Shown piece by piece: positions 1,240 to 23,638 of a DNA stretch of 24,000 bases. The translations under genes and the position numbers were made by a program. The stretch lies in assembly GCF_000195935.2 (NCBI RefSeq), contig NC_000868.1, positions 1,437,742 through 1,461,741 of the forward strand, given 5' to 3'. The stretch's first letter is position 1. Every line of letters begins with the position of its first letter. The stretch is from Pyrococcus abyssi GE5. Lineage in GTDB: Archaea; Methanobacteriota_B; Thermococci; Thermococcales; Thermococcaceae. The notes under the pieces were generated by a model that saw only the letters and a list, made by a program, of their open reading frames with translations, was not told where the DNA came from and ran no database searches.

Positions 1240-2691
1240 TCACCTCACGAACCCTATGCCCGTTACGAAGCGGTAACTAATCAACGGAGCAACCACGCTC
1301 AAGATTATAAGGGCCAAGAGGACTGCCTTCATTAGTGGAGTTATTTCCTCCCTCTTCTCCGTTGGTTCTCCAAAGAGCATCGTCTTGAGCCAAAGCACTG
1401 AGACTATGAAGAAGACCGTAGCGTCTATCAGAACTAGCAACACCGGAATCCACGCTATGAATCCCTGGGATGCAAGCTTGGAGCTCATGACTATGTAGGC
1501 TTTGCTAAAGAATATCCCAAACGGGGGAGCTCCAGCCAAGCCGAGTAAAGCCAAGAACCATCCAACCGCAACAACTGGCATGCTCCACCTTATTCCCCTA
1601 ATCTTCTCCATATCCAATGTACCAAAGGAATACGCAAAGGTTCCTGCGGAGAGGAATGCCAATCCCTTAACGAAAGCGTGATTGAAAAGCTGGAACATGG
1701 AAGCTTGAATACCCTCAGCGTTTCCAAGAAGGGCGTAGAGCAAACCCACGTACATGATTCCAGCCTCTGATATTGTAGAGTAAGCTAAGAGTCTCTTAGC
1801 GTCCCTCTGGAGTGGATAGTAGATTATCGCCAAGACTTGGGTTATCGCAAGTAGCGTTAGCATCACGTAAAACGCTTCCTGGGGTATGGGAGACATGAAC
1901 TGAATTATCCTAGCTAAGAGGTAGACCCCCATCTCTATCATCGCCGCTCCGTGGAGGAACGCTGAAGCAGGGGTTGGGGCTTCCATGGCATCTGGGAGCC
2001 AGGAGTAGAATGGAAATTGGGCGCTCTTTGTGAAAGCGGCTATCATGACGCCTAAGAAGAGTACCAGCTTTAGGTGGGCATCCAAACCTTGAAGGGAATA
2101 TAAGCTAAGGTCGTGAAGCTTCGTAATGGAAATCGAGAGGGCCGTGTATAAACCAACAACGGCACCGAAGTTTGGAATTATGAAAGCCTTGTAAGCTGCT
2201 CTTACAGCACTCTCGGTTCCGTAATAACTCACGACTCCCCAACAGGCTAGACTCATGAGCTCAAAGAATACCAGGAGCTGGAGAAGGGTTGAGGAGTATA
2301 TAAAACCGAGGGTGGAACCCAGGAATATGAGCATCCAGGCGTAAAACCTCCCCTTGTCCTTATGAACTGGGTGTGTAGAATTCCTTGGGGACATGTAGTC
2401 AATGCTGTACAGGAGGAACAGGAAACCAGCTAGAGCGACAACGAAGCCTATTAAAACGCTCATCGGGTCAACTATAATCCCGTAGACCTCTCCGAGGGTT
2501 GGGGTTCTAAGGTAGGTAACGTGGTAACTCCCTTCGCTAAGGAACTCCAACATTCCAAAGGAAACGAGGAGGAGGGATGATAGCGAGGTTAGAACCATTA
2601 ACCAATCTGCAACCTTCCCATCCAGCTTGAACATCACGATACCCACGATTATCGGGATCAAAGATGAAAGAAGGAAAAGCTCTGGAGTCAT
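1240..2691 (-). CDS. NuoL/M/N-MnhD family proton-conducting membrane subunit (formate hydrogenlyase / Mrp-like module)
   Basis: Track ORF 1240..2700. About 14 hydrophobic segments, motifs FFELMSLACWG and LLAYSTISEAGIMYVG typical of PF00361-type antiporter-like subunits. The track start at 2700 is GTG. ATG at 2691 is preceded by GAGGTGA (2697-2703) at 5-nt spacing, so I prefer 2691. Confidence 0.85.
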   Translation of the reverse strand: MTPELFLLSSLIPIIVGIVMFKLDGKVADWLMVLTSLSSLLLVSFGMLEFLSEGSYHVTYLRTPTLGEVYGIIVDPMSVLIGFVVALAGFLFLLYSIDYMSPRNSTHPVHKDKGRFYAWMLIFLGSTLGFIYSSTLLQLLVFFELMSLACWGVVSYYGTESAVRAAYKAFIIPNFGAVVGLYTALSISITKLHDLSLYSLQGLDAHLKLVLFLGVMIAAFTKSAQFPFYSWLPDAMEAPTPASAFLHGAAMIEMGVYLLARIIQFMSPIPQEAFYVMLTLLAITQVLAIIYYPLQRDAKRLLAYSTISEAGIMYVGLLYALLGNAEGIQASMFQLFNHAFVKGLAFLSAGTFAYSFGTLDMEKIRGIRWSMPVVAVGWFLALLGLAGAPPFGIFFSKAYIVMSSKLASQGFIAWIPVLLVLIDATVFFIVSVLWLKTMLFGEPTEKREEITPLMKAVLLALIILSVVAPLISYRFVTGIGFVR

Positions 2692-2712: not shown

Positions 2713-3207
2713 TCAGAGGAGGTAAGCTAGCTTACCTACACTCTTATCCCTGGCTTCCTTTAGGTTCAGCACTACCCTACCTTCCCTCTTCCAGAGTATC
2801 TCGTTTATGTCCCCGTACTTCAACGCATCGGTGGGACAGGCTGAGACACATGCTGGAAGCTTGCCTTGAGCTCTTCTATCGGCGCAGAGGTCGCACTTGT
2901 CCATTATCTTATTGGCCTCATCGAGCTTTGGAACTCCGAAGGGACAGGCAACTGCACACATTAAACAGCCAATGCACTTTAGGGGGTCGAAGGCCACAGC
3001 GTTATCACAATCTCTGTATAGGGCTCCGGTTGGACACACCTCTAGGCAAGGTGCTCTCTCGCAGTGACGACAGTTGAAGGGGATGCTCGTTAAATCGGGG
3101 AACTCGAAAACCCTTATCCTGGCTTCACCGTGCTCCATCTCGCAGGCTACCTCACAAGCTTTACAAGCGATGCACCTCCTATAGTCGAGGAATATCTTCT
3201 TGCTCAT
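2713..3207 (-). CDS. 4x[4Fe-4S] ferredoxin-type electron-transfer subunit (HycB/FdhB-like)
   Basis: Four Cys clusters are visible: CIACKACEVAC, CRHCERAPCLEVCP, CIGCLMCAVACP, CDLCADR...CVSACP. A GGGGGGAG RBS precedes the ATG. It lies 12 nt downstream of the fdhA stop. Confidence 0.9.
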   Translation of the reverse strand: MSKKIFLDYRRCIACKACEVACEMEHGEARIRVFEFPDLTSIPFNCRHCERAPCLEVCPTGALYRDCDNAVAFDPLKCIGCLMCAVACPFGVPKLDEANKIMDKCDLCADRRAQGKLPACVSACPTDALKYGDINEILWKREGRVVLNLKEARDKSVGKLAYLL

Positions 3208-3219
3208 TCAACTCCCCCC

Positions 3220-5280
3220 TCAACCTTCAACCTTAGAAATCCTACATGCAGCTGTTTTCAGCTCGGGCATCTTAGAGAACTCGTCAATTGCATCGTCCTT
3301 CGTTAGGTAGTTGAAGCCCCAGTGCCACGGCATCGCAACTACGCCTTCCCTTATGTTCTCCGTGACCTCGGCCCTAGCTACGAGAGAACCTCTCCTCGTC
3401 TCGACCCTAACCAGGTCCCCGCTCCTTATTCCAAGTCTCTTGGCATCTCTTTCGTTTATCATCACATAAGGCCCAGGCCACCTCTTCTTCAGGCTCTTAG
3501 TCCTGTTGCTCATCGTTCCCGTGTGGAATTGGCCAACCAACCTGAAGTTCGTGAGCCAGAAGGGATACTCCTCATCTGGAACTTCTCCTGGAGGCTTCCA
3601 CTCAACTGGAATTAGCTCGGCCTTTCCGCTCTTGGTTGGGAATCCCTTGAGGAACAACCTCGGGGTCTCGGTGTTCTCGTCGGGACATGGATACATGCAA
3701 CCCTCAAGGTTCTTTGCAAGCCTCTCCGGTGTCGCTCCCTTAAGAGCCGGAATGACGTTGTTTATTTCCCTGAGAACATCGTCAACGCTCGAGTAGTTGA
3801 AGTACTCACCAAGTCCAATGGATTTTGCCAACATAACAATTATCTCCCAATCAGGCTTAGCCTCCCCTGGGGGCTTAACCGCCTGGAAGCTCCTCATAAC
3901 CCTCCTGTTCTGAGTTATAACGGTTCCAGTCTTTTCGTACCATGCGGCTGCAGGGAGAACTATGTCAGCGTACTTCGTCGTTTCCGTTGGGAATATATCG
4001 GCAACTACCACGAAAGCCCTCTTTAGTGCCTCCTCTATCTTAGATGAATTGGCTAGGGATCTGGCCGGGTTCTGGCCCATTATGTAAATACCCTTGATCT
4101 TCCCCTCAAGCATGGCATCGAATATTGCCTGGTAATGCAAACCGGGCTTAGATGGAACCTCGAATCCCCAAAGCTCGCTGAACTTTTTAGCGGTCTCCTC
4201 GTTGAGGGGAACAGGTCCTGGGAGTTGAGCACAGTTCACCCCGGGAACAGCTGCACATAGACCACAGTGGGCCCCAGGGATTACCCCAGAGAACACGCCT
4301 TCCTTCCCTATGTTCCCAGTGATCGCTATTAAATTGCTAATGGCCATTGCTGTTATCGAACCATTGGCATGCTGGTTTATTCCCTCGTTAAGAACTACAG
4401 TTGCGTTTCCACCAGTTGCAAAGAGAACCGCAGCTTCGTGAATTAAGCTCGCCGGAACTCCGCTAATCTTCTCCGCCCACTCCGGGGTGTACTTCTCAAC
4501 GGCCCTAGCCAGGGCATCGAAGTTGTTAACCCTCTCCGCAACGAAATCCTTGTCGTAGAGCTCTTCCTTGATTATGACGTGGAGCATTGCTAAAGCTATT
4601 GCCAAATCTGTTCCTGGGTAGGGTTGTAGGTGAATGTGAGCGTACTTTGCGGTTTCTGTCTTTACTGGATCCACAACGATTAGCTTAGCACCGTTGTCAA
4701 GGATTGCCTTCTCAAAGTACTGACCAAAGAGAACCGGATTGGTGGCTGCAGGGTTGTACCCCCAGATCAGGATTACCTTAGACTTTACTATGTCATCGAA
4801 AGGATTCGTCTGGGCTGGACCTCCGAAGATCTTACTTCTAGCAACGAAGTTAGATGATTGACAGAGCCTACCTGCGAATTCAACGTTGTTAGTTCCCAAG
4901 GCTCTAGCGAGCTTTTGGAGGAGGTAGTTATCTTCAAGGGAACAGCGCTCGCTACCCAGGAACGCTAAGGCCTCTGGGCCGTGACTTTCCAATATCTCCT
5001 TGAATTTCTTTGCGATTATCTCTATGGCCTCTTCCCAACTTATCTCCTCGAACTTTCCCTCTCCTTTCTCGCCAACTCGCTTGAGGGGCTTCTTTAGCCT
5101 ATCGGGATGAACGTAGTGCTGATAAGATGAGACACCCTTGGGGCATAATTTTCCCTTGTTGGGAGTTTTTGGGTTATAATCGAACTCTATCTTCCTAGGA
5201 TAACCGTCAACGCTTACTATGTACAACCTACACCCGACGGAGCACCAGGGGCATACAACGGGAATTAACTTCTCTGCCAT
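3220..5280 (-). CDS. fdhA: Molybdopterin/tungstopterin oxidoreductase, formate dehydrogenase alpha subunit (Cys-type, cytoplasmic)
   Basis: 686 aa. N-terminal [4Fe-4S] motif CPWCSVGCRL...C(x)PKG. The segment NNVEFAGRLCQSSNFVARS aligns by eye with the E. coli FdhH active site NNVDCCARVUHGPSVAGL, placing Cys140 (TGT, 4861-4863) at the Sec position. No twin-arginine signal. Context is ferredoxin plus antiporter-like subunits, as in the Thermococcus fdh-mfh-mnh clusters. Confidence 0.8.
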   Translation of the reverse strand: MAEKLIPVVCPWCSVGCRLYIVSVDGYPRKIEFDYNPKTPNKGKLCPKGVSSYQHYVHPDRLKKPLKRVGEKGEGKFEEISWEEAIEIIAKKFKEILESHGPEALAFLGSERCSLEDNYLLQKLARALGTNNVEFAGRLCQSSNFVARSKIFGGPAQTNPFDDIVKSKVILIWGYNPAATNPVLFGQYFEKAILDNGAKLIVVDPVKTETAKYAHIHLQPYPGTDLAIALAMLHVIIKEELYDKDFVAERVNNFDALARAVEKYTPEWAEKISGVPASLIHEAAVLFATGGNATVVLNEGINQHANGSITAMAISNLIAITGNIGKEGVFSGVIPGAHCGLCAAVPGVNCAQLPGPVPLNEETAKKFSELWGFEVPSKPGLHYQAIFDAMLEGKIKGIYIMGQNPARSLANSSKIEEALKRAFVVVADIFPTETTKYADIVLPAAAWYEKTGTVITQNRRVMRSFQAVKPPGEAKPDWEIIVMLAKSIGLGEYFNYSSVDDVLREINNVIPALKGATPERLAKNLEGCMYPCPDENTETPRLFLKGFPTKSGKAELIPVEWKPPGEVPDEEYPFWLTNFRLVGQFHTGTMSNRTKSLKKRWPGPYVMINERDAKRLGIRSGDLVRVETRRGSLVARAEVTENIREGVVAMPWHWGFNYLTKDDAIDEFSKMPELKTAACRISKVEG

Positions 5281-5580: not shown

Positions 5581-5619
5581 AGCATCCAAAGCACAATTTA
5601 ATTAAATTTGGTGAGCAAA

Positions 5620-6066
5620 ATGGTAAACCTCTCAATGTTCTCAACCCAATCTTCAACTATTCTTGGAAACGATAGAAGATTAATGGTCATCGAATACTTG
5701 AAGAGTCATAGCGGAGAGGCCGAGATAAGCGAGCTCGTGGATTACATATGCAAAAGCGAGGGAAACGAAAGAAGAAGGCACAGAAAAAGCGTTTATGTTA
5801 GCTTAGTTCAAACACATCTCCCAAGGCTTCAAAGGGAAGGCATCGTAAATGTGAAGAGGAGTAGGGTGTACCTGCTCGATGTTCCCTCCGAGGTTCATGC
5901 TTTCATAACGATAAAGAACGCGAAGAGGAATATGTGGCCGATAGTCTACCTGATTTTCTCGGCCGTTGCATTGTCTACATCGCTGTTAATAGCGAGCTCC
6001 GAGGGAGTGATATTCTCTTTGTTCCTACTCGCATTGGCTGTACTCCATTGGGTGCTAACTAGCTAA
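5620..6066 (+). CDS. Membrane-anchored winged-helix (ArsR-like, DUF7344-like) putative transcription regulator
   Basis: The track ORF starts at TTG 5608. ATG 5620 follows GGTGA at 5-nt spacing. The N-terminal ~95 aa (ILGNDRRLMVIEYLKSHSGEAEISELVDYI...RKSVYVSLVQTHLPRLQREGIVNVKRSRVYL) match, from memory, the pattern of archaeal wHTH proteins with the 'sLyqtHLPkL' recognition region. The C-terminal ~50 aa form two hydrophobic helices. Confidence 0.7.
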   Translation: MVNLSMFSTQSSTILGNDRRLMVIEYLKSHSGEAEISELVDYICKSEGNERRRHRKSVYVSLVQTHLPRLQREGIVNVKRSRVYLLDVPSEVHAFITIKNAKRNMWPIVYLIFSAVALSTSLLIASSEGVIFSLFLLALAVLHWVLTS

Positions 6067-6100
6067 TTCTCCTTCAGAATTATAGTTTTACGTTCCCTAA

Positions 6101-6110
6101 CTTTTATTTT
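6101..6110 (+). terminator. Oligo-T tract (CTTTTATTTT) downstream of the wHTH gene
   Basis: Archaeal terminators are typically T-runs. This one is 35-44 nt after the stop at 6064-6066. Confidence 0.3.
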
Positions 6111-6143
6111 AGAAAAACTGAGCTCCAACTCTATCCCTCTAAT

Positions 6144-6164
6144 ATGGTAATCAGGGGTTACCAT
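6144..6164. promoter_or_regulatory. Palindrome ATGGTAA-N7-TTACCAT upstream of the secreted-protein operon promoter
   Basis: Read directly. 7-bp perfect arms, about 20 bp upstream of the TATA-like CTATATAC. Confidence 0.3.
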
Positions 6165-6183
6165 CATGGAAAGCTGAAACTAC

Positions 6184-6191
6184 CTATATAC
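6184..6191 (+). promoter_or_regulatory. Candidate TATA box (CTATATAC) of the TasA-like operon
   Basis: Preceded by purine-rich GAAACTAC. The expected TSS is near 6215, which argues against the track's TTG start at 6212. Confidence 0.4.
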
Positions 6192-6247
6192 AACTTCAAC
6201 TCTACTCTTGGTTGAGCCCTCACATGGGGGGCTCAGTTGACCAGGAG

Positions 6248-6853
6248 ATGGAAAAAGTGAATAGATATCTACTTGCCATATTTGGCCTTGTGGCCACATT
6301 TGGTCTCGTACTTGGAGTCGGGGCCAATTTTAGGGACTACAACGCAAGCAGGAGCGTCCACTGGGACATAGTTGCCGACGACTCGGAGCTAATTGACTTG
6401 ACTCCGATTCAGAACTACTCGTACATAGATGAAAACGGAAAGCTCGTGATAGACTTTTCACCCGGTAACCCCAACTATCCAGGCTATGGAAACGGGGTAA
6501 GTCCAAGTAGTGAGTACAACTTCGACGAGGTATTCGGAGTTAGTAACCACCTATGGGAGAACCTTCCTATAGTGGTTGAGATAAACTCCACAAACTCACA
6601 CATAGAGCTTTACGGGGCAGATGGAAACGTGTACTCAGCCTATGACGGAAACTTGGCTAGTGCAAGCGACTCAGCAAGGGACTGGGTTTGCTTTGTAGTT
6701 CAGCCCGAAGACATGGTTAAGGTAGGAATGGACCTTTCAGCAAACGGCGACTCACCTGGAGACACCTGGACTGGAAGTTTGAAGATCAGGGCCTACAGGC
6801 TTGGCACCGAGCCTGCTTACCTAGTGGGCAAGTGCGGGCAGGGGCCTATTTGA
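6248..6853 (+). CDS. Secreted TasA/AbpA-like (DUF1102-like) putative fibre subunit, paralog 1
   Basis: The N-terminal hydrophobic segment ends in VGA|NFRDYNASRS. The protein is roughly 60% identical by eye to the next ORF over about 65 residues (DDSELIDLTP..NGKL...YPGYG.G.S..S.Y.F.E.F.VSN.LWEN). Start is ambiguous: ATG 6248, or GTG 6257 (AGGAG RBS 9 nt upstream), which gives MNRYLL parallel to MNKLF of paralog 2. Family assignment is from remembered sequence patterns, not a search. Confidence 0.75.
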   Translation: MEKVNRYLLAIFGLVATFGLVLGVGANFRDYNASRSVHWDIVADDSELIDLTPIQNYSYIDENGKLVIDFSPGNPNYPGYGNGVSPSSEYNFDEVFGVSNHLWENLPIVVEINSTNSHIELYGADGNVYSAYDGNLASASDSARDWVCFVVQPEDMVKVGMDLSANGDSPGDTWTGSLKIRAYRLGTEPAYLVGKCGQGPI

Positions 6854-6867
6854 AGGAGGTATGAGAA

Positions 6868-7395
6868 ATGAATAAGTTGTTTGGAATTGCCCTGTTCCTT
6901 GCAGGGCTTATGTTGGCGGTTGGCGCTGGAGCCAACTTTAGGTACTTCGAGGCAGATAGGGACATGACAGTCGCGATAGTAAGCGACGATAGTGAGTTAA
7001 TAGACTTAACCCCAGTACAGCCTTACGTATACCTAAACAACGGAAAATTGACAGTTGAGATATCGTCCGGACACCCTGAGTATCCAGGATACGGCGATGG
7101 ACTTAGCACAGACAGCCTGTACGTCTTTGAAGAGATGTTTAACGTAAGCAACGAGCTTTGGGAGAACGCCGGCCAGGACTACCCGATATGTGTCACCATA
7201 AAGGCACAATTACCAGTAAAAGTATTCGCCGGAACTTACGACAGCCCGATAGCGGGACCCGACGATACTATCAGCTTTACAGTGTACCACGGCCAGCCCG
7301 TTCCAGTTGGAATGATCTTTGACAACACCGGACTAGACCTAGGAGGGCACCAGATACAGCTAGACATAAGCGCTGTTGCCGGTGAGTGCGAGTGA
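6868..7395 (+). CDS. Secreted TasA/AbpA-like (DUF1102-like) putative fibre subunit, paralog 2
   Basis: GGAGGT RBS 7 nt upstream of the ATG. The signal-like N-terminus MNKLFGIALFLAGLMLAVGAGA|NFRYFEADRDMTVAIVSDDSELIDL resembles the 'GAF..v.AeRtvsv..adD...L.L' N-termini I recall for haloarchaeal TasA-like/DUF1102 proteins and the bacterial SipW-cognate signal class. Confidence 0.8.
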   Translation: MNKLFGIALFLAGLMLAVGAGANFRYFEADRDMTVAIVSDDSELIDLTPVQPYVYLNNGKLTVEISSGHPEYPGYGDGLSTDSLYVFEEMFNVSNELWENAGQDYPICVTIKAQLPVKVFAGTYDSPIAGPDDTISFTVYHGQPVPVGMIFDNTGLDLGGHQIQLDISAVAGECE

Positions 7396-7422
7396 AGGGG
7401 CTTCGGCTCCTTTTCAGCTTTT
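7395..7422 (+). terminator. Hairpin with TTCG loop followed by two T4 tracts, immediately after the paralog 2 stop
   Basis: AAGGGGC-TTCG-GCTCCTT forms a 7-bp stem with one G-U pair, followed by TTTTCAGCTTTT. It sits between the structural genes and the peptidase gene. Confidence 0.4.
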
Positions 7423-7434
7423 AGGTGACGAAAG

Positions 7435-8418
7435 ATGCGGGCCTCCGATTTGATTATCGACCTGGTAATCCTGGGCATAATATTACCCTCGGTTATCGGG
7501 TTCATGATGGGGAGGCCCGTGTTCGTTTCCTATGCCTACTCAGATAGCATGACGCCAACGATAAACAGATGGGACGTTTTCTTCATAAATCCGCTATCAA
7601 AAGGAGACGTTGGAGATATAATCGTCTTTAACCTCTCGGGCAAGTGGACTGTTCATAGGGTATATGCCATAACCGAAAGCGGATACATAACTAAAGGAGA
7701 CAACAACGTTGCAACGGACCAACAAGACAATAAGAATCCACCAATCCCGAGGAATCAGGTGATAGGGAAAGTCATAACGCTTGGGGGTAGACCCATAAAG
7801 ATACCTAAGCTTGGAAAGTACCTACAATCTAAGGATTCCCACTACTTGGCGATAGGATTAGTGGCCTTGGGTGGAGTAATGCTAGGCAGTAATGAGAAGA
7901 GAAGAAGGAAAAGAAGAGGAAAAGTCATTGATACTGGAACCATATACATAGCGCTTTCAGCTTTATTAGCGTTCGGAGTAGTGTTCACGGGTTCAATAGC
8001 GTGGGGTGAGATAAGCATTCCATATACATCAACATTGGCCGGAGGGCAAAGGGAAGGATGGTACCTGCCGGGAAGCGTCGTTGAGAGAAACGTAACCGTT
8101 GAAAATTACGCTAAGTTTCCTATGGTAATGGTCGTTGAAGGGGAAGACATTAGAAGGGTATTCAAGCTGGAAGGTGGAGAGGAAAGAAAGATAGAGATAA
8201 CCATAGACGTTCCAGAAGAGACGAGGGTTTACAATAAGGTCATTAAGGTTTATCCGTATTATCCGATACTTCCACTGAAGCTCATAGACTGGGCCAACTC
8301 AAAAAGCCCATACCTACCCCTGCTCATGGAGGGACTAATGGTATTCCTGGGACTGTTAGCTTTGAAGCCATTACTTGGGGAACCTGAATATATAAACCTT
8401 GGGAGATTTTGGAGTTGA
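7435..8418 (+). CDS. Type I signal peptidase, S26 family, SipW/Sec11 (Ser-His) type, fused to a ~190-aa C-terminal multi-TM plus beta-rich extension
   Basis: Catalytic boxes read directly: YSDSMTPT (Ser box), WTVHRVYAI (His box), TKGDNNVATDQQD (GDNN box). GGTGA RBS at 7424-7428. After residue ~135 come TM2, the basic loop NEKRRRKRRGK, TM3, a ~100-aa non-hydrophobic domain and a final TM. Confidence 0.85.
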   Translation: MRASDLIIDLVILGIILPSVIGFMMGRPVFVSYAYSDSMTPTINRWDVFFINPLSKGDVGDIIVFNLSGKWTVHRVYAITESGYITKGDNNVATDQQDNKNPPIPRNQVIGKVITLGGRPIKIPKLGKYLQSKDSHYLAIGLVALGGVMLGSNEKRRRKRRGKVIDTGTIYIALSALLAFGVVFTGSIAWGEISIPYTSTLAGGQREGWYLPGSVVERNVTVENYAKFPMVMVVEGEDIRRVFKLEGGEERKIEITIDVPEETRVYNKVIKVYPYYPILPLKLIDWANSKSPYLPLLMEGLMVFLGLLALKPLLGEPEYINLGRFWS

Positions 8419-8810
8419 GAAAAATAATTGGAATATTGCTAATTGCAATGGCCCTTCTAACGCTAGAGGTCGGTAGCGTCTCGAACTTTAGGGAGGCCAG
8501 CATGGAGAGGGAGGTTATAGTTGGTTATGGGGACCCTTTCATAGACGTTAGCTGCGAGACCCATGTAATTTGTTGCCATCAGATTGGAGTTATAACGGTG
8601 AAGAACAACCTGGATGAACCCATAGAGGTCTATCTCCTAAGGAAACGTTGCCACTGCACTCAAAGAACTTACATTGGAACTATAGAGCCTGGACATTCAG
8701 AAAACATCTACGTTCTCCCAGGAAATTACACTATACAGGCAGAGTGGAACAGTGGAGGGGCCAAAATAAACGTGACTTGCCCATGCATTAGGAGGGAGCA
8801 TCATGATTAA
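8409..8810 (+). CDS. Small Cys-rich secreted protein with the same N-terminal signature as the two fibre-subunit paralogs
   Basis: N-terminus ...IGILLIAMALLTLEVGSVS|NFREASMEREVIV. Seven Cys (SCETHVICCH, RCHC, CPC) and a C-terminal EHHD. Start is non-ATG (TTG 8409 or 8415) and overlaps the peptidase stop, so it is uncertain. Confidence 0.6.
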   Translation: MELRKIIGILLIAMALLTLEVGSVSNFREASMEREVIVGYGDPFIDVSCETHVICCHQIGVITVKNNLDEPIEVYLLRKRCHCTQRTYIGTIEPGHSENIYVLPGNYTIQAEWNSGGAKINVTCPCIRREHHD

Positions 8811-9720
8811 AGACAATAGATTATCGTACGCGTTCCTGGGACTCTTCGCGCTATTCCTACTACTCTCGCTAGCCTCCTACTCGAGGCCAACCAGCTTCAG
8901 CAGACAGGTGATTGAGGGTAGCATCGTCGAGGAAGGAATGCTAAAGCATGAAGGACACTTAATGAATTCAACAATCTATGGGGAATTCGCGTCCTTAGGT
9001 TATTACCCAACGAAGATCACCGATTACATCGTTGGGGACTACAGGTACAGGGTTACCCCTAAAGAAGATGGAAACTACACGCTGAAAGGCTTGGTCTCTT
9101 ACTACGTCACTAAGGGGAAGGGAAAGGTGTACCTCATAAACGAGACGATGTTCAGCTATAAAGGAAAGTTAACCAACGGAATGTTCGAGGAGAAGTTCAC
9201 GGTGAACCTAAGCAAGATAAACAAGAGAAGGAGCGAGATAAGCGAAGCTTTGAACTTGCCGAGGTTAAGTTACGAGATTAAGGTTGTTGCAGATATTGAT
9301 AGGGAAAACGGAACTTTCAGTCAAGAGATGCCCGTAATCAACGATGCCGCAAGCGGTTTAACGTACATAGACAACACGAACATAAAGAAGAGGAATGCCC
9401 TTACAAAGACCGTTAAAGAAGAGTTGAAGTTCCTTGGCATGAGGGTTTCAACCGCTAGAATAGTGTTCCCGATACTCGCGTTCATCTCGGGGGTTGTAGC
9501 TTTACTAGCTTGGGAGCCCAGGAAGAGGAAGTGGGCCATAGAAGCTAGACCCACGGGAATAGGAGAGAGGGTAATAGTCAACGACATGAAGAGCTTAAAG
9601 AAGATAGCGGGAATAGTTGGGAGTCCAATAATTCACTACGAAACTGACGGAATAAGTGTATACGGAGTTATAGATGGACACGTGCTCTACGAGTACTGGG
9701 AGATCAGGAGCGAGCCTTGA
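8803..9720 (+). CDS. Bitopic/two-TM membrane protein with a ~190-aa external domain and a ~70-aa C-terminal cytoplasmic tail (DUF5305-like?)
   Basis: GGAGGGAG RBS. The ATG overlaps the upstream stop (ATGATTAA). TM at aa ~8-26 and aa ~217-237, followed by the basic stretch EPRKRKW. The family name is only a recollection. Confidence 0.65.
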   Translation: MIKDNRLSYAFLGLFALFLLLSLASYSRPTSFSRQVIEGSIVEEGMLKHEGHLMNSTIYGEFASLGYYPTKITDYIVGDYRYRVTPKEDGNYTLKGLVSYYVTKGKGKVYLINETMFSYKGKLTNGMFEEKFTVNLSKINKRRSEISEALNLPRLSYEIKVVADIDRENGTFSQEMPVINDAASGLTYIDNTNIKKRNALTKTVKEELKFLGMRVSTARIVFPILAFISGVVALLAWEPRKRKWAIEARPTGIGERVIVNDMKSLKKIAGIVGSPIIHYETDGISVYGVIDGHVLYEYWEIRSEP

Positions 9721-18400: not shown

Positions 18401-19069
18401 TCACTGGAGCTCAATACCCTCACTGGAGTAAGTAGCTGGAGTTATTAAGTCGATAACAGTTCCTGCACCGTGTGGTGGCAGTATCTTACCGACCACCTTT
18501 GTGTTAGGCGGAATTCCCCCGTATTTGTTAAAAGCCAATTTAGTGTTAATTAGCAGTACTGCTAAATCTCCCGAGTTCATTCCCGGTGATGCCTTGTTGG
18601 AAAGCATGCTTTTATCGCTATCAACCACAACTCCCACTCCAAACTTTGTTCCGTTAATATTTTCCCATATGGTTTCATTAAAGACATTAACTGCACCATT
18701 CGTCCAGTCTGCAACGGTATCCTCTCCACCAAAGGTAAATATGACCATCGTTGACTTTACTGTGAGTATTATCCTTGTCTGGTTGAGGTTTATGGGTTCA
18801 CTTCCAGCGTTGGGAGCTATGTATATGGCGAGTTTGGTAATATTGCTCTGAATGGTGGTATTGCCAGTAGTATTCTTAGGGGCATAGCCCCAGATTGAGA
18901 TTATTCTGAGACCACTTGAAACATCCCTTGTAGTCTCTAGGCCTACAGACATTGCCCTTTGCTGGAGATATCCAGAAGTGCTAATGAGCACTCCCGCTGC
19001 TACTGCCGCTACTAAAACCATTGCGATGAAAACTATCAACGTGCCAATGCCGATCGCACCTCTCCTCAT
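18401..19069 (-). CDS. flaB: Archaellin (flagellin) FlaB/ArlB, copy 3
   Basis: Class III signal peptide MRRG|[25 protein letters not shown], with several N-x-S/T sequons. The track start at 19078 is GTG. ATG 19069 is preceded by GGTGA at 5 nt. Confidence 0.9.
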
Positions 19070-19079
19070 TGCTCTCACC

Positions 19080-19739
19080 TCACTGGAGTACCATCACCCG
19101 GTAGTTATATGTTGAGGGTGTTGTGAAGTCTATAACACCTGCAGCCCCAACTTCGGGAATTACCTTCCCAACTATCCTAGTACCAGGACCGATTCCTCTA
19201 CGGTTATCCTCTGTTTCAAAAACTGTTGTCCTGAGGAGTAGTGCCACGGTATCTCCCCATTCTAAGTTTGGATAATCTTTGTCCATTTTGTTCCCACTGT
19301 CGTTAATGACCGCTATTCCGAAGGTTGTATCGGTAATGTTGTTCCATATCGTAACGATAGAATCATTGAACAAGTCGCTTATCTGTTTGTCATAAAGCAA
19401 TCCCTTGCTATAATTATAGACAACGAGTTTCTTGCCATCGCTGAGAACAATTTTCACGTTACTGAGGGATATCCCCCCACTCCCTGCGTTAGGTGAGACG
19501 AATATTGCCATCTTGGTTATTGTGCCATTACTAGGGACAGAGGAGTTTACGTAACCATAGATGTTGATGATCTTTATCCCACTGGAAACCTCTTGGGTTG
19601 TCTGCATGCCTGTAGCCTGTGCCTTCTGTTGAAGATAACCAGCTGTTCCAATGATAACTCCCGCCGCTACTGCCGCTACTAGAACCATTGCAATGAAGAC
19701 AATGAGCGTTCCTATGCCTATTGCACCCTTTCTGTGCAT
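19080..19739 (-). CDS. flaB: Archaellin (flagellin) FlaB/ArlB, copy 2
   Basis: MHRKG|[25 protein letters not shown]. The track start at 19754 is TTG. ATG 19739 follows GGTGA at 4 nt. Confidence 0.9.
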
Positions 19740-19767
19740 AGTATCACCCCTCAAAGAAATTAATGTT

Positions 19768-19806: not shown

Positions 19807-20304
19807 TCAGCTACTGGGAACACTATCAAGATCTTTGGTTACAGTGAATGGAGTTGGTGAACCAACGTTAGGAACGATTTCTCCCCGAGCGACGGTCCAA
19901 CCCTCACTCATATTGAATGTTATGAGAATTGTTGATCCTGGTTGTACAATGTCGCCGTTAATCTCTCCTACCAGAGGTTTTGCAGAGAAATTTGTGGTGT
20001 TAGCAGTACTACCATATGTGAGTTGCTTTCCGTTTACGATTATAACTGTCCTGCTAATGTCGACGGGATAGCTCCCCGTTGGTAGGGTTACTAGAAGGTT
20101 TATCGTATTGGTGCCTGTTACATAGGCGTCCTTGAGAATAAAACCAGTCGAAACTTGCCTGGTCTGCTCCTTACCTACTGTTGAAGCCCTAGTCTGGAGG
20201 AAGCCGCTCGTGTTTATGAGAACTGCTGCAGCTACTGCAGCCACTAACACCATGGCAATAAACACTATTAGGGTACCAATACCAATCGCACCTCTTCTTG
20301 CCAT
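19807..20304 (-). CDS. flaB: Archaellin (flagellin) FlaB/ArlB, copy 1 (short form, promoter-proximal)
   Basis: MARRG|[25 protein letters not shown]. Only ~165 aa, with a C-terminal domain unlike copies 2 and 3. The track start at 20334 is TTG. ATG 20304 has GGGGGTG 9 nt upstream. Confidence 0.85.
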
Positions 20305-20342
20305 TTGCCATGCACCCCCTTGGAGGTTTTTCAATATTTTCT

Positions 20343-20370
20343 AAAAATGGCTGGATATAAAACCATTTTT
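20343..20370 (-). promoter_or_regulatory. Candidate flaB promoter: TATA box TTTTATAT (20355-20362, minus) bracketed by the inverted repeat AAAAATGG / CCATTTTT
   Basis: Read directly. The TATA box is ~50 nt upstream of ATG 20304. The 8-bp arms (20343-20350 and 20363-20370) flank a 12-bp spacer containing it. Confidence 0.4.
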
Positions 20371-20400
20371 TGTGTGTGGAAGTGCCTGTAAAAGTTGAAC

Positions 20401-20424
20401 TACATATGTAGGTACATATGTAGG
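20401..20424. promoter_or_regulatory. Tandem repeat of the 10-bp palindrome TACATATGTA (TACATATGTAGG x2), giving four TACATA hexamers; candidate EarA-type activator site
   Basis: Read directly. About 40 bp upstream of the candidate flaB TATA box. TACATA is the hexamer I recall as the EarA binding consensus upstream of the Methanococcus maripaludis fla promoter. Confidence 0.55.
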
Positions 20425-20434
20425 TTATCGACAT

Positions 20435-20449
20435 CAAAAAAGAATAAAA
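20435..20449 (-). terminator. Oligo-T terminator (TTTTATTCTTTTTTG on the minus strand) immediately after the methyltransferase stop
   Basis: Read directly. It separates the regulator-methyltransferase unit from the flaB promoter. Confidence 0.5.
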
Positions 20450-21412
20450 TCAGAGCTTCCTAACGAGGAGAACGGACTTCCCGTAGTCCTCGAAGCTGAC
20501 GTCGAAGCCCTCCTCGAGTATAATCCTCTTAACTTCCTCCTTGCCAGGGTAACCAACGAAAGAGCTGTTCAATCCTTCAAAGAACTCCATAGCCTCTATG
20601 TTCTTGAACTCGTCCCTGAAGGCGTCAACTATTACCAGCTTCCCGCCGGAGTCCAAAGCTTCGAGAACCTTCCTGAGCACTTCCCTCCTATCTTTGACGT
20701 ACTCCAGGAGGAAGCTCATTATAGCTACATCGTACTTAGTCCTGGGCTTTATCAAGCTAACATCCATCTCCTTCAGCTCAACTGGCAAACCTTCCCTCTC
20801 CACCCTCTGCCTCGCTATCTCCAGCAGGCCGGGAGAGTAATCAACTCCTAAGTATTTCCCATCCTCGCTTATGAACTTCCCAAAGTAGCTCGGCGACACG
20901 GAGCCACAACCTAAGTCCAAGACGTAGCTCTCCCTGTTTATCTCGCCCAGGTTAACTATAACGTCCCTGTATATCTTGTTAAACGACGAGGATAGCCTGA
21001 GGTCCCAGAAGTCAGCATCCTTGTCGAAGTCCATTAAAACGTAGGGGTGGTCATAGGATATCAGTGCGAAGTCGATCATCTTATATATCTCCTCCCAAAG
21101 GGGAATCCAATCCGAGAGTAGAAGCATGTAATCTTCCTTGGGGAAGGTAAGCACGTAGGAGAAGCCGTTCAAGATTAAGCTGTTGGGAGTCTCCTCAATT
21201 ATCCCGAGGGCCTTTAAGTGCTCTATGAGCCTTTTGAGGAGGGGCTTGTTTGGAACTTGAATCTGGGATAAGAGCTCAGCGTAACTTGGTCTAGATGCCA
21301 CGGCTTTGAATATGCCATATTTTATACCGAGTTGGGCAAGGTTCAGCACGCTTAGGCTTATCATGTGGTTAATGTTAGTGTCTATGGTCCTTATTAGCTC
21401 ATTTACTCCCAT
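20450..21412 (-). CDS. Class I SAM-dependent methyltransferase with N-terminal wHTH-like/dimerisation domain, fla-operon associated
   Basis: Motif I VLDLGCGSVSP, then a DVAIMSFLLEYV motif and a GGKLVIVDAF motif. The track start at 21469 overlaps the upstream gene. ATG 21412 follows GAGGTGTTGAGG and gives MGVNELIRTID. Confidence 0.85.
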   Translation of the reverse strand: MGVNELIRTIDTNINHMISLSVLNLAQLGIKYGIFKAVASRPSYAELLSQIQVPNKPLLKRLIEHLKALGIIEETPNSLILNGFSYVLTFPKEDYMLLLSDWIPLWEEIYKMIDFALISYDHPYVLMDFDKDADFWDLRLSSSFNKIYRDVIVNLGEINRESYVLDLGCGSVSPSYFGKFISEDGKYLGVDYSPGLLEIARQRVEREGLPVELKEMDVSLIKPRTKYDVAIMSFLLEYVKDRREVLRKVLEALDSGGKLVIVDAFRDEFKNIEAMEFFEGLNSSFVGYPGKEEVKRIILEEGFDVSFEDYGKSVLLVRKL

Positions 21413-21422
21413 CCTCAACACC

Positions 21423-21749
21423 TCACATGAATTTTCTGTAGTAGGCTTGGTAATCCCTAAGCATCTCAACTACCTTTTTCCCATACTCGGTCAGCCTGTA
21501 GTATTTGAACCCGTTGTTCCTTATCTCCTCTACGAGGCCAAGGTAAACAAGGGAGCTTTCACCATTGTAACGGTTCCCCAAACCAACCAACGCACCCCTC
21601 ACGTTGGAAGGATCCGACCCAACAACCCTCGCTATCTCGCTAAGGTAAGTGGCAGAAGGGTATATCTCGTAGAGGTACTGGAGGATTCTCCTCCGAAGCT
21701 CGCTCCTGTGTAGTGATCGCAAGACGTGAGGGTCAATCACTGGTGGCAC
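21423..21749 (-). CDS. Small winged-helix DNA-binding protein, candidate archaellum regulator (EarA-like)
   Basis: 108 aa. The wHTH pattern is RRRILQYLYEIYPSATYLSEIARVVGSDPSNVRGALVGL...LVEEIRNNGFKYYRLTEYGKKV. GTG start with GGTGA 6 nt upstream. First gene of the fla region. The EarA assignment is inference. Confidence 0.7.
   Translation of the reverse strand: MPPVIDPHVLRSLHRSELRRRILQYLYEIYPSATYLSEIARVVGSDPSNVRGALVGLGNRYNGESSLVYLGLVEEIRNNGFKYYRLTEYGKKVVEMLRDYQAYYRKFM

Positions 21750-21890: not shown

Positions 21891-23638
<1,748 letters not shown>

Follow-up and report, generated by a model that had tools for sequence, protein, structure and literature searches.

A 12-bp-phased candidate operator for the archaellum regulator EarA upstream of arlB0 in Pyrococcus

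The window analysed here, a stretch of 24 kb of DNA taken at its full length, is the archaellum (arl/fla) locus of Pyrococcus, and within it lie both a gene for an EarA-family regulator and, upstream of the first archaellin gene arlB0, the probable operator of that regulator. The first-pass annotation of this DNA had suspected as much, and we can now say so because the encoded protein is an EarA homologue and because the element is conserved in 19 arlB0 promoters. It is very probable, in our judgement, that EarA (21423–21749) binds a phased track of sites at 20425–20378, promotes TFB recruitment at a weak, A-rich BRE, and activates arlB0 together with its operon. In such a mechanism the tandem 12-mers ACCTACATATGT (20425–20402, minus strand) would be the strong sites of the operator, EarA occupying the track would help to bring TFB to the weak BRE, and arlB0 would be switched on, with the downstream arl genes transcribed by read-through. 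We infer two of these steps, namely the binding of this particular EarA to the blocks and the recruitment of TFB. The reading of the element as an EarA operator is supported by the family of the protein, by the lack of a second such element in the window, and by its conserved sequence, phase and distance.

To our knowledge, EarA is the only dedicated archaellum activator in Euryarchaeota, and we know of few other archaeal activators that are thought to act by TFB recruitment. In Methanococcus maripaludis, EarA binds four 6-bp TACATA sites directly upstream of the BRE, loss of these sites or of earA abolishes fla transcription, and a shortened A7 BRE bypasses EarA, which suggests that the protein recruits TFB (Ding 2017; PMC10117864). 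The first-pass annotation had described EarA as binding multiple TACATA hexamers upstream of the BRE, and the literature agrees, giving the number of copies as four. Specific binding by EarA has been demonstrated in M. maripaludis only (Ding 2017; PMC10117864), and the need for EarA in arl transcription or archaellation has been established by genetics in M. maripaludis and P. furiosus only (PMC10665913; Ding 2017; PMC10117864). Archaellation of P. furiosus requires EarA, whose dose is limiting (Stöckl et al. 2023, PMC10665913). The combination of EarA with an arlB0 promoter motif is already known for Pyrococcus and other Thermococcales, having been described in 2023 (PMC10665913). That study used MEME to derive the motif A(C/G)(C/G)TACA(T/C), present in one to three copies upstream of arlB0 in Thermococcales and in Pyrococcus 'shifted by one window' (PMC10665913). 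Its text contains no EMSA or ChIP, and the strings 'palindrom' and 'inverted' do not occur in it.

Results

Organisation of the locus

The features considered here are collected in Table 1. On the minus strand the genes run in the order earA, fam, arlB0, arlB1, arlB2 and then the remaining arl cluster, in which arlC–J are named by position; the identities of arlC–arlJ are provisional, being read from gene order and from the P. furiosus cluster. The arlB genes and the arl genes downstream of them are presumed to form the regulated operon. The same order of earA, fam, arlB0–B2 and other arl genes is found in P. furiosus. Only 11 nt separate the stop codon of earA from the start of fam, and arlB0 comes next. 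This pairing of earA with fam recurs in 50 of 57 related loci, and is kept in loci from Thermococci, Archaeoglobi, Methanocaldococcus and Hydrothermarchaeota, in keeping with the rule stated in a review that earA stands beside the predicted methyltransferase gene fam, often near arl or che genes (PMC10117864). The oligo-T tract that follows fam is the probable terminator of the earA–fam unit; archaeal termination takes place at poly(T), and earA–fam is a separate unit in P. furiosus (PMC10665913).

The 108-aa length of the earA ORF is the same in public annotations, and arlB0, with its ATG at 20304, likewise encodes 165 aa on an identical contig (L063). The DNA of the window matches an ENA metagenome scaffold with 100% identity over 5.6 kb. 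Compared to P. horikoshii OT3 the identity of the DNA is about 80%, yet the two EarA proteins are 100% identical.

Table 1 Features of the earA–arlB0 region. Scores out of 8 are against the published 8-mer.
Feature	Position	Strand	Description
earA	21423..21749	(-)	108-aa winged-helix transcriptional activator, EarA family; start codon GTG
fam	20450..21412	(-)	320-aa class-I SAM methyltransferase; Pfam Methyltransf_12/25/31/11, E 1e-12 to 1e-14
Oligo-T tract TTTTATTCTTTTTT	20436..20449	(-)	Directly 3' of the fam stop codon; read from sequence
Block -4 ACCTACATATGT	20414..20425	(-)	Strong EarA-type candidate site, 8/8; exact copy of block -3
Block -3 ACCTACATATGT	20402..20413	(-)	Equals the Thermococcales consensus of the best-conserved block
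Blocks -2 and -1 (AGTTCAACTTTT, ACAGGCACTTCC)	20378..20401	(-)	Degenerate in-phase remnants or weak sites, 5/8 each
Block 0 and BRE: ACACACAAAAAA then TGG	20363..20377	(-)	A-rich (weak-type) TFB recognition element
TATA box TTTTATAT	20355..20362	(-)	Near-invariant (TTTATAT) across the promoters compared
arlB0 (flaB0)	19807..20304	(-)	First archaellin, 165 aa; Pfam PF01917, E 1.4e-28
arlB1 and arlB2	18401..19754	(-)	Archaellins; Pfam PF01917 and NCBIfam NF006325, E 4e-85 and 2e-76

The regulator encoded by earA

The 108-aa wHTH protein had been put forward in the first-pass annotation as a plausible EarA homologue, and database searches bear this out. It matches the Pfam family PF07381 'EarA-like' (formerly DUF1495) with E 1.6e-33 and 114.8 bits, against a cut-off of 22, over the entire profile (1–90 of 90); in NCBIfam, no model matched the ORF. 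The protein shares 56% identity (77% positives, E 2e-40) with CAF31274.1 (P0250) of M. maripaludis, a member of the NCBI cluster named 'archaellum operon transcriptional activator EarA family protein'; going by how accessions of the S2 genome are numbered, we take CAF31274.1 to be MMP1718 (EarA). It is also identical to the Pyrococcus MULTISPECIES protein P0043/WP_010868615.1. Judged by its sequence relationships, the earA product is the euryarchaeal archaellum regulator EarA.

An AF2 model of the protein (pLDDT 89.6) predicts a winged HTH and a long C-terminal helix (residues 88–107), with further helices at residues 7–14, 17–28, 36–43 and 47–55 and a wing formed by strands 73–78 and 81–86. 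Both this fold and the length of 108 aa agree with the EarA family, whose members are small winged-helix proteins of about 105–115 aa. The residues S45-D-P-S-N-V50 and G52 are invariant in 26 homologues from Thermococci, Methanocaldococcus and other archaea, and in the model they map to the start of helix 47–55, the predicted recognition helix. Such invariance across the homologues fits a common DNA specificity. The Foldseek neighbours of the model are homodimeric wHTH regulators of the ArsR/SmtB and MarR families, although these matches are weak (E ~1e-3), and the best structural matches in the PDB are SmtB, CzrA, HpaR and MepR, with query-normalised TM-scores of 0.56–0.68. What these families have in common with the EarA model is a winged HTH that lies between N- and C-terminal helices. 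They differ in that most ArsR/SmtB and MarR proteins are repressors that sense a ligand or a metal, whereas EarA activates transcription and has no known ligand, and there is no significant sequence relationship between them. A sequence-profile search of the PDB found no sequence-related solved structure, with the top match being a PadR protein at E 0.004.

A tandem palindromic element upstream of arlB0

Positions 20401–20424 of the plus strand read TACATATGTAGG TACATATGTAGG, in tandem, and on the minus strand 38 bp separate the end of this element from the TATA box (20362–20355). Tandem palindromes holding four TACATA hexamers, about 40 bp upstream of a TATA-like box of flaB, were what the first-pass annotation had described, and that description stands; the hexamers lie at 20401(+), 20405(-), 20413(+) and 20417(-). 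Exact copies of TACATATGTA occur in the 24 kb at 20401 and 20413 only, and when up to one mismatch is allowed there are three matches against 0.34 expected, a number that was reached in none of 100 shuffles. The hexamer TACATA is itself over-represented about threefold across the window (25 observed, 7.6 expected), so it is only the cluster that is informative, and not any single hexamer. We also see an excess of the published 8-mer A[CG][CG]TACA[TC], which has 13 matches in the window against 3.3 expected and is clustered only at 20406–20425, where three matches overlap. The interval 20398–20425 holds four 8-mer sites, two per strand, of which three are perfect and one has one mismatch. A scan of the 24-kb window for 12-bp-phased arrays gave no second site, and upstream of earA no candidate autoregulatory sites rose above background in the window.

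The sequence ATGTAGGT is the reverse complement of ACCTACAT, and the ATGT(A) tail of a unit overlaps an inverted 8-mer copy, with which it is in phase. Within TACATATGTA the centres of the inverted TACA and TGTA half-sites are about 6 bp apart, a spacing that would be awkward for a canonical symmetric wHTH dimer.

Phased blocks between the element and the BRE

Read on the minus strand towards arlB0, the two palindromic units are blocks -4 and -3 of the track in Table 1, and block -3 together with A20401 makes up the palindrome TACATATGTA. The two degenerate blocks that come next, which can also be given as AGTTCAAC and ACAGGCAC (5/8 each), keep the 12-bp phase; the background chance of two scores of at least 5 at 12-bp spacing is 0.011. 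The A6 run of the BRE extends from 20371 to 20366 on the minus strand, and A-run BREs of this kind have been read as weak (Ding 2017; Stöckl 2023, PMC10665913). By analogy, the transcription start probably lies near 20332–20334, with the TATA box about 26 nt upstream of it, and the 5' UTR would then measure about 30 nt, the length mapped for arlB0 of P. furiosus (PMC10665913).

In the window the 8-mer core of the strong blocks ends about 40 bp from the A-run, compared to the published 9–11 bp; measured from the BRE, the end of the strong blocks is 24 bp more distant than that of block -1. It is block -1, adjacent to the BRE in Thermococcus, that underlies the 9–11 bp spacing behind the model of direct EarA–TFB contact (PMC10665913).

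Comparison across Thermococcales

A sample of 57 earA loci and further Pyrococcus contigs was used for comparison, with 19 non-redundant arlB0 promoters anchored on the TATA box; the earA loci are mostly MAGs, and the promoter set is without the type strains of P. furiosus and T. kodakarensis. All 19 promoters have an invariant ACAAAAAA/GCAAAAAA BRE block, i.e. an A6 run after ACA or GCA, in the same register. Upstream of this block, again in all 19, are blocks of the form A(C/G)(C/G)TACA(T/C)nnnn in strict 12-bp register. The first-pass annotation had looked to conservation of the element upstream of flaB in other Thermococcales, and such conservation is found in each of the 19 arlB0 promoters, in a fixed 12-bp register to the BRE and TATA box. 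The best-conserved block is -3, which has the consensus ACCTACATATGT with high information content at 12 of 12 positions and is usually followed by AG. Both units of the window are exact copies of this consensus, and this match indicates that TACATATGTA is a conserved property of the Thermococcales core site, not an accident of one genome.

The number and position of strong blocks show some variety. In Thermococcus promoters, blocks -3 and -2, and often -1 too, are strong or near the consensus, giving two to three such blocks per promoter, and one MAG (L009) also has a near-strong block at -4 (7/8). The strong blocks of the three Pyrococcus promoters are -4 and -3, followed by weaker motif copies at -2 and -1; in P. 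yayanosii, the latter two read AGTTACAT and ACAAACAT, with scores of 7/8 and 6/8. P. horikoshii has ACCTACATATGT AGGTACATAGGT at the positions of blocks -4 and -3, and in strain OT3 two adjacent blocks fit the published degenerate 8-mer (ACCTACAT and AGGTACAT); the species has been credited with one site (PMC10665913). Overall, the promoters of P. furiosus and other Thermococcales are like that of the window in their A-rich BRE and TATA box at a fixed distance and in their adjacent motif repeats. What distinguishes the window is that its units are exact 12-mer copies, and the published account (PMC10665913) is without the palindromic extension, the degenerate in-phase blocks and the che promoters.

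When 1.07 Mb of related loci were scored on both strands, the only places with three-block scores of at least 21/24 were the promoters of arlB0, two promoters of che genes, and a single further site, which lies downstream of fam in locus L022. EarA-type arrays are seen upstream of che genes in Thermococcus MAGs.

Comparison with Methanococcales

As proxies for Methanococcales we took the first-archaellin promoters of Methanothermococcus sp., M. okinawensis and M. infernus, a set to which the M. maripaludis promoter does not belong. All three fla promoters have a 12-bp-phased array of ACCTACAT upstream of an A7–8 BRE, exemplified by that of M. infernus, which reads ACCTACATAACT ACCTACATAAAT AACAATAAAAAC AGTTACAAAGTT GATTACAAAAAAAAGATTTATTATA. 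The overall layout is therefore common to both orders. The difference lies in the tail of the sites, which is TACATAA in Methanococcales, without the inverted ATGTA half, whereas Thermococcales have TACATATGTA. On the promoter sequences compared, the palindromic ATGT(A) tail is the sole feature of the layout that is specific to Thermococcales. The first-pass suggestion of a layout unlike that of methanogens consequently has to be narrowed: it applies to the tail, but the 12-bp-phased arrangement as a whole is common to the three Methanococcales promoters. The system of M. maripaludis EarA (MMP1718) and that of the window have in common the protein family (56% identity), a multi-copy TACATA core and a weak BRE of A7 type. 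They differ in gene order, since earA of M. maripaludis lies away from the arl cluster (PMC10117864), whereas in the window earA, fam and arlB0 are adjacent.

Alternative readings of the element

The tail raises the question of whether EarA alone accounts for the palindromes, or whether they are the operator of a different regulator, either a repressor or a second activator, that reads CATATG or TACATATGTA, with EarA acting elsewhere or only on TACA cores. The ATGT(A) tail is kept at block -3 in Thermococcales and is absent from Methanococcales (TACATAA), and the recognition-helix residues of EarA are invariant between the two orders despite this difference, so that the extra constraint could come from another protein. 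We nevertheless think a different regulator unlikely. The tail overlaps the in-phase inverted copy of the 8-mer, which is most simply read as EarA binding to both strands, and no other transcription factor gene is conserved in the locus. As far as we know, the Thermococcales motifs of SurR, TrmBL1 (TGM) and Phr are unrelated to the element.

There are two further readings of the tandem arrangement. The two units of the window are identical 12-mers, and the corresponding positions of P. horikoshii read ACCTACATATGT AGGTACATAGGT, which might suggest that a single EarA site was recently duplicated in tandem, giving a second 12-bp unit that is functionally neutral and has no bearing on stoichiometry. 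This is highly improbable, since two strong blocks (-4 and -3) are present in three of three Pyrococcus promoters and two to three strong or near-consensus blocks in those of Thermococcus; multiple blocks across both genera mean that the multiplicity is conserved and not an accident of the window genome. We also considered that the tandem palindrome could function as RNA, in the form of a hairpin at the 3' end of the earA–fam transcript that acts as a terminator or stabiliser, and not as a DNA operator. The minus-strand RNA of 20450–20390 does fold into a 10-bp hairpin (-11.2 kcal/mol at 37 °C, z-score -3.25), located 25–50 nt past the fam stop codon. However, the hairpin comes after the oligo-T tract and not before it, and a stem so rich in A/U would probably not hold together at temperatures near 100 °C. 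In most of the orthologous promoters, moreover, there are direct-repeat blocks that are unable to form a hairpin of this kind (e.g. L005 and L009), and in L004 and L009, which have arlB and earA in divergent orientation, the array again lies before arlB0 and not downstream of fam. On grounds of position, thermal stability and the lack of conservation as a hairpin, this reading was rejected, and we give it almost no credence.

Discussion

The reading of the tandem element as the strong part of an EarA operator leaves some choice as to how the protein would be arranged on the DNA. EarA could form a head-to-tail array on direct repeats, or it could bind as symmetric dimers on palindromic ACCTACAT/ATGTA(G/C)(G/C)T units. 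The two features that fit least easily with published spacing and with canonical dimers, i.e. the distant strong sites and the half-sites about 6 bp apart, could be explained by co-operative filling of the weak blocks or by recognition of both strands by symmetric dimers. The proposed mode of action has parallels in TFB-RF1 (PF1088) of P. furiosus and Ptr2 of M. jannaschii, which, like EarA, are activators that bind just upstream of the BRE/TATA elements. These proteins compensate for a weak core element by recruitment of TFB or TBP, and for EarA such recruitment is proposed by analogy. They belong to families unrelated to EarA, have different operators and have no connection with motility. 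The analogy with TFB-RF1 and Ptr2 is invoked in both EarA papers (Ding 2017; PMC10665913).

As the EarA–arlB0 system is not new, the contribution of the present data lies in several increments: a palindromic extension of the core that is conserved, a track of four blocks in Pyrococcus in which two degenerate in-phase blocks separate the strong sites from the BRE, the 12-bp register held in common with Methanococcales, and the EarA-type arrays at che promoters. The window represents a natural variant in which two blocks lie between a pair of perfect consensus units and the BRE. In combination with the 12-bp register common to the two orders, this variant could be used to probe the oligomerisation of EarA on DNA, the dependence of activation on helical phase, and the place of chemotaxis genes in the regulon, all of which have been listed as open questions (PMC10665913).

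A more speculative extension of the operator model, which we offer tentatively and think somewhat doubtful, is that EarA nucleates remotely at blocks -4 and -3 and spreads along the 12-bp-phased track until it reaches TFB, and that it does likewise at che promoters. The high-affinity sites would be blocks -4 and -3, both of which contain a palindromic TACATATGTA core, and spreading would proceed co-operatively via the two degenerate blocks and the in-phase 'ACA + A-run' BRE block. If this is true, the promoter would be a graded, dose-dependent switch rather than one governed by a single contact beside the BRE, and if the same track logic applies at che promoters, EarA would be a joint regulator of the archaellum and of chemotaxis.

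The 12-bp register of EarA-type sites at archaellin promoters

The TACATA hexamer occurs 25 times in the window against 7.6 expected from dinucleotide shuffles of the whole window, with most copies lying inside genes, and this excess is probably an effect of codon usage. Because the hexamer is over-represented throughout the window, lone copies are not to be taken as binding sites for EarA, the winged-helix activator. In Thermococcales promoters of arlB0, the sites take the form of the 12-bp unit A(C/G)(C/G)TACA(T/C)nnnn. For P. horikoshii, one EarA site is given by Stöckl et al. (PMC10665913). In the OT3 strain, the 16 bp of ACCTACATATGTAGGT are perfectly palindromic and run on into ACAT; together these provide two neighbouring blocks that match the published 8-mer, A(C/G)(C/G)TACA(T/C).

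The BRE block A..(A/G)(A/G)CAAAAAA keeps the 12-bp phase both in the window and in all 19 Thermococcales promoters of arlB0, the first archaellin gene, and it retains CA, usually ACA, at the position expected for the EarA core. Blocks of ACCTACAT, also spaced by 12 bp, are found in the first-archaellin promoters of three Methanococcales, where they run into TACAAAAAAA(A)G and then TATTTAT; here TACAAAAAAA is the counterpart of the BRE block and is likewise in 12-bp phase. The register is that of the Thermococcales promoters, but the palindromic tail of the latter is absent from the three Methanococcales promoters.

Features of the window and of related loci (L-numbers) compared with it
Feature	Location	Strand	Remarks
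Gene cluster: DUF7344 HTH protein, two DUF1102 proteins, S24-like peptidase, DUF5305 protein	window 5608-9720	+	
arlB0	window 19807-20304	-	only 165 aa
BRE block	window 20366-20377	-	
PH0542-type HEAT-repeat protein, 251 aa	window 22841-23596	-	about 1.1 kb past earA (Pyrococcus)
HEAT proteins, 548-572 aa	L071 1-1179; L073 1-1283	-; -	two Methanothermococcus genomes; divergent from first archaellin gene
First-archaellin promoter array	L071 about 1290-1340		Methanothermococcus sp.
First-archaellin promoter array	L072 about 1305-1385		Methanocaldococcus infernus
First-archaellin promoter array	L073 about 1375-1440		M. okinawensis
Palindrome and ACAT	L059 about 4406-4430		P. horikoshii OT3
che-linked EarA-type array	L005 about 2850-2888	-	5' of cheR-cheY-cheB
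che-linked EarA-type array	L006 about 4045-4082	-	5' of cheR-cheY-cheB
che-linked EarA-type array	L009 about 7392-7420	+	5' of cheY, just after fam
che-linked EarA-type array	L004 about 7360-7390	+	5' of cheY, just after fam
Inverted pair ACCTACATATA...TATATGTAGGT	L020 about 5865-5932; L028 about 3920-3986		uncultured Thermococci MAG
3-block ACCT(G/A)CA array	L057 about 3125-3164		Thermoplasmatales MAG; divergent from earA
Array	L022 3925-3960		unclassified archaeon; immediately 3' of fam

Genes and elements around the motility locus

The length of the first archaellin differs strongly among close relatives: besides the short arlB0 product of the window, there are products of 335 aa on metagenome contigs resembling P. 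horikoshii and of 222 aa in P. yayanosii, while the annotation of OT3 gives 237 aa. HEAT-repeat proteins are encoded near the motility locus in both Thermococcales and Methanococcales. The cluster that adjoins the arl genes, possibly a module that is secreted or forms a surface structure, has no relation to the EarA operator finding. In further EarA-encoding lineages, related elements adjoin earA or fam, the SAM methyltransferase gene paired with it; in one uncultured Thermococci MAG with two earA paralogues, both paralogues have the inverted pair, about 70 bp 5' of earA.

EarA-type arrays at chemotaxis promoters

In Thermococcus MAGs, EarA-type arrays in 12-bp phase also abut the BRE/TATA upstream of chemotaxis genes, one example reading ACCTGCGTATGC ACCTACACAACC ATCTACACTAAA, followed by GGCTTTTTAT. 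At these che promoters, the position of the BRE block is taken by a true EarA-type site. Since the BRE block is elsewhere in phase and keeps CA at the core position, the final EarA position may overlap the BRE. The arrays further suggest that chemotaxis may be co-regulated by EarA, a question left open by Stöckl et al. in 2023 (PMC10665913).
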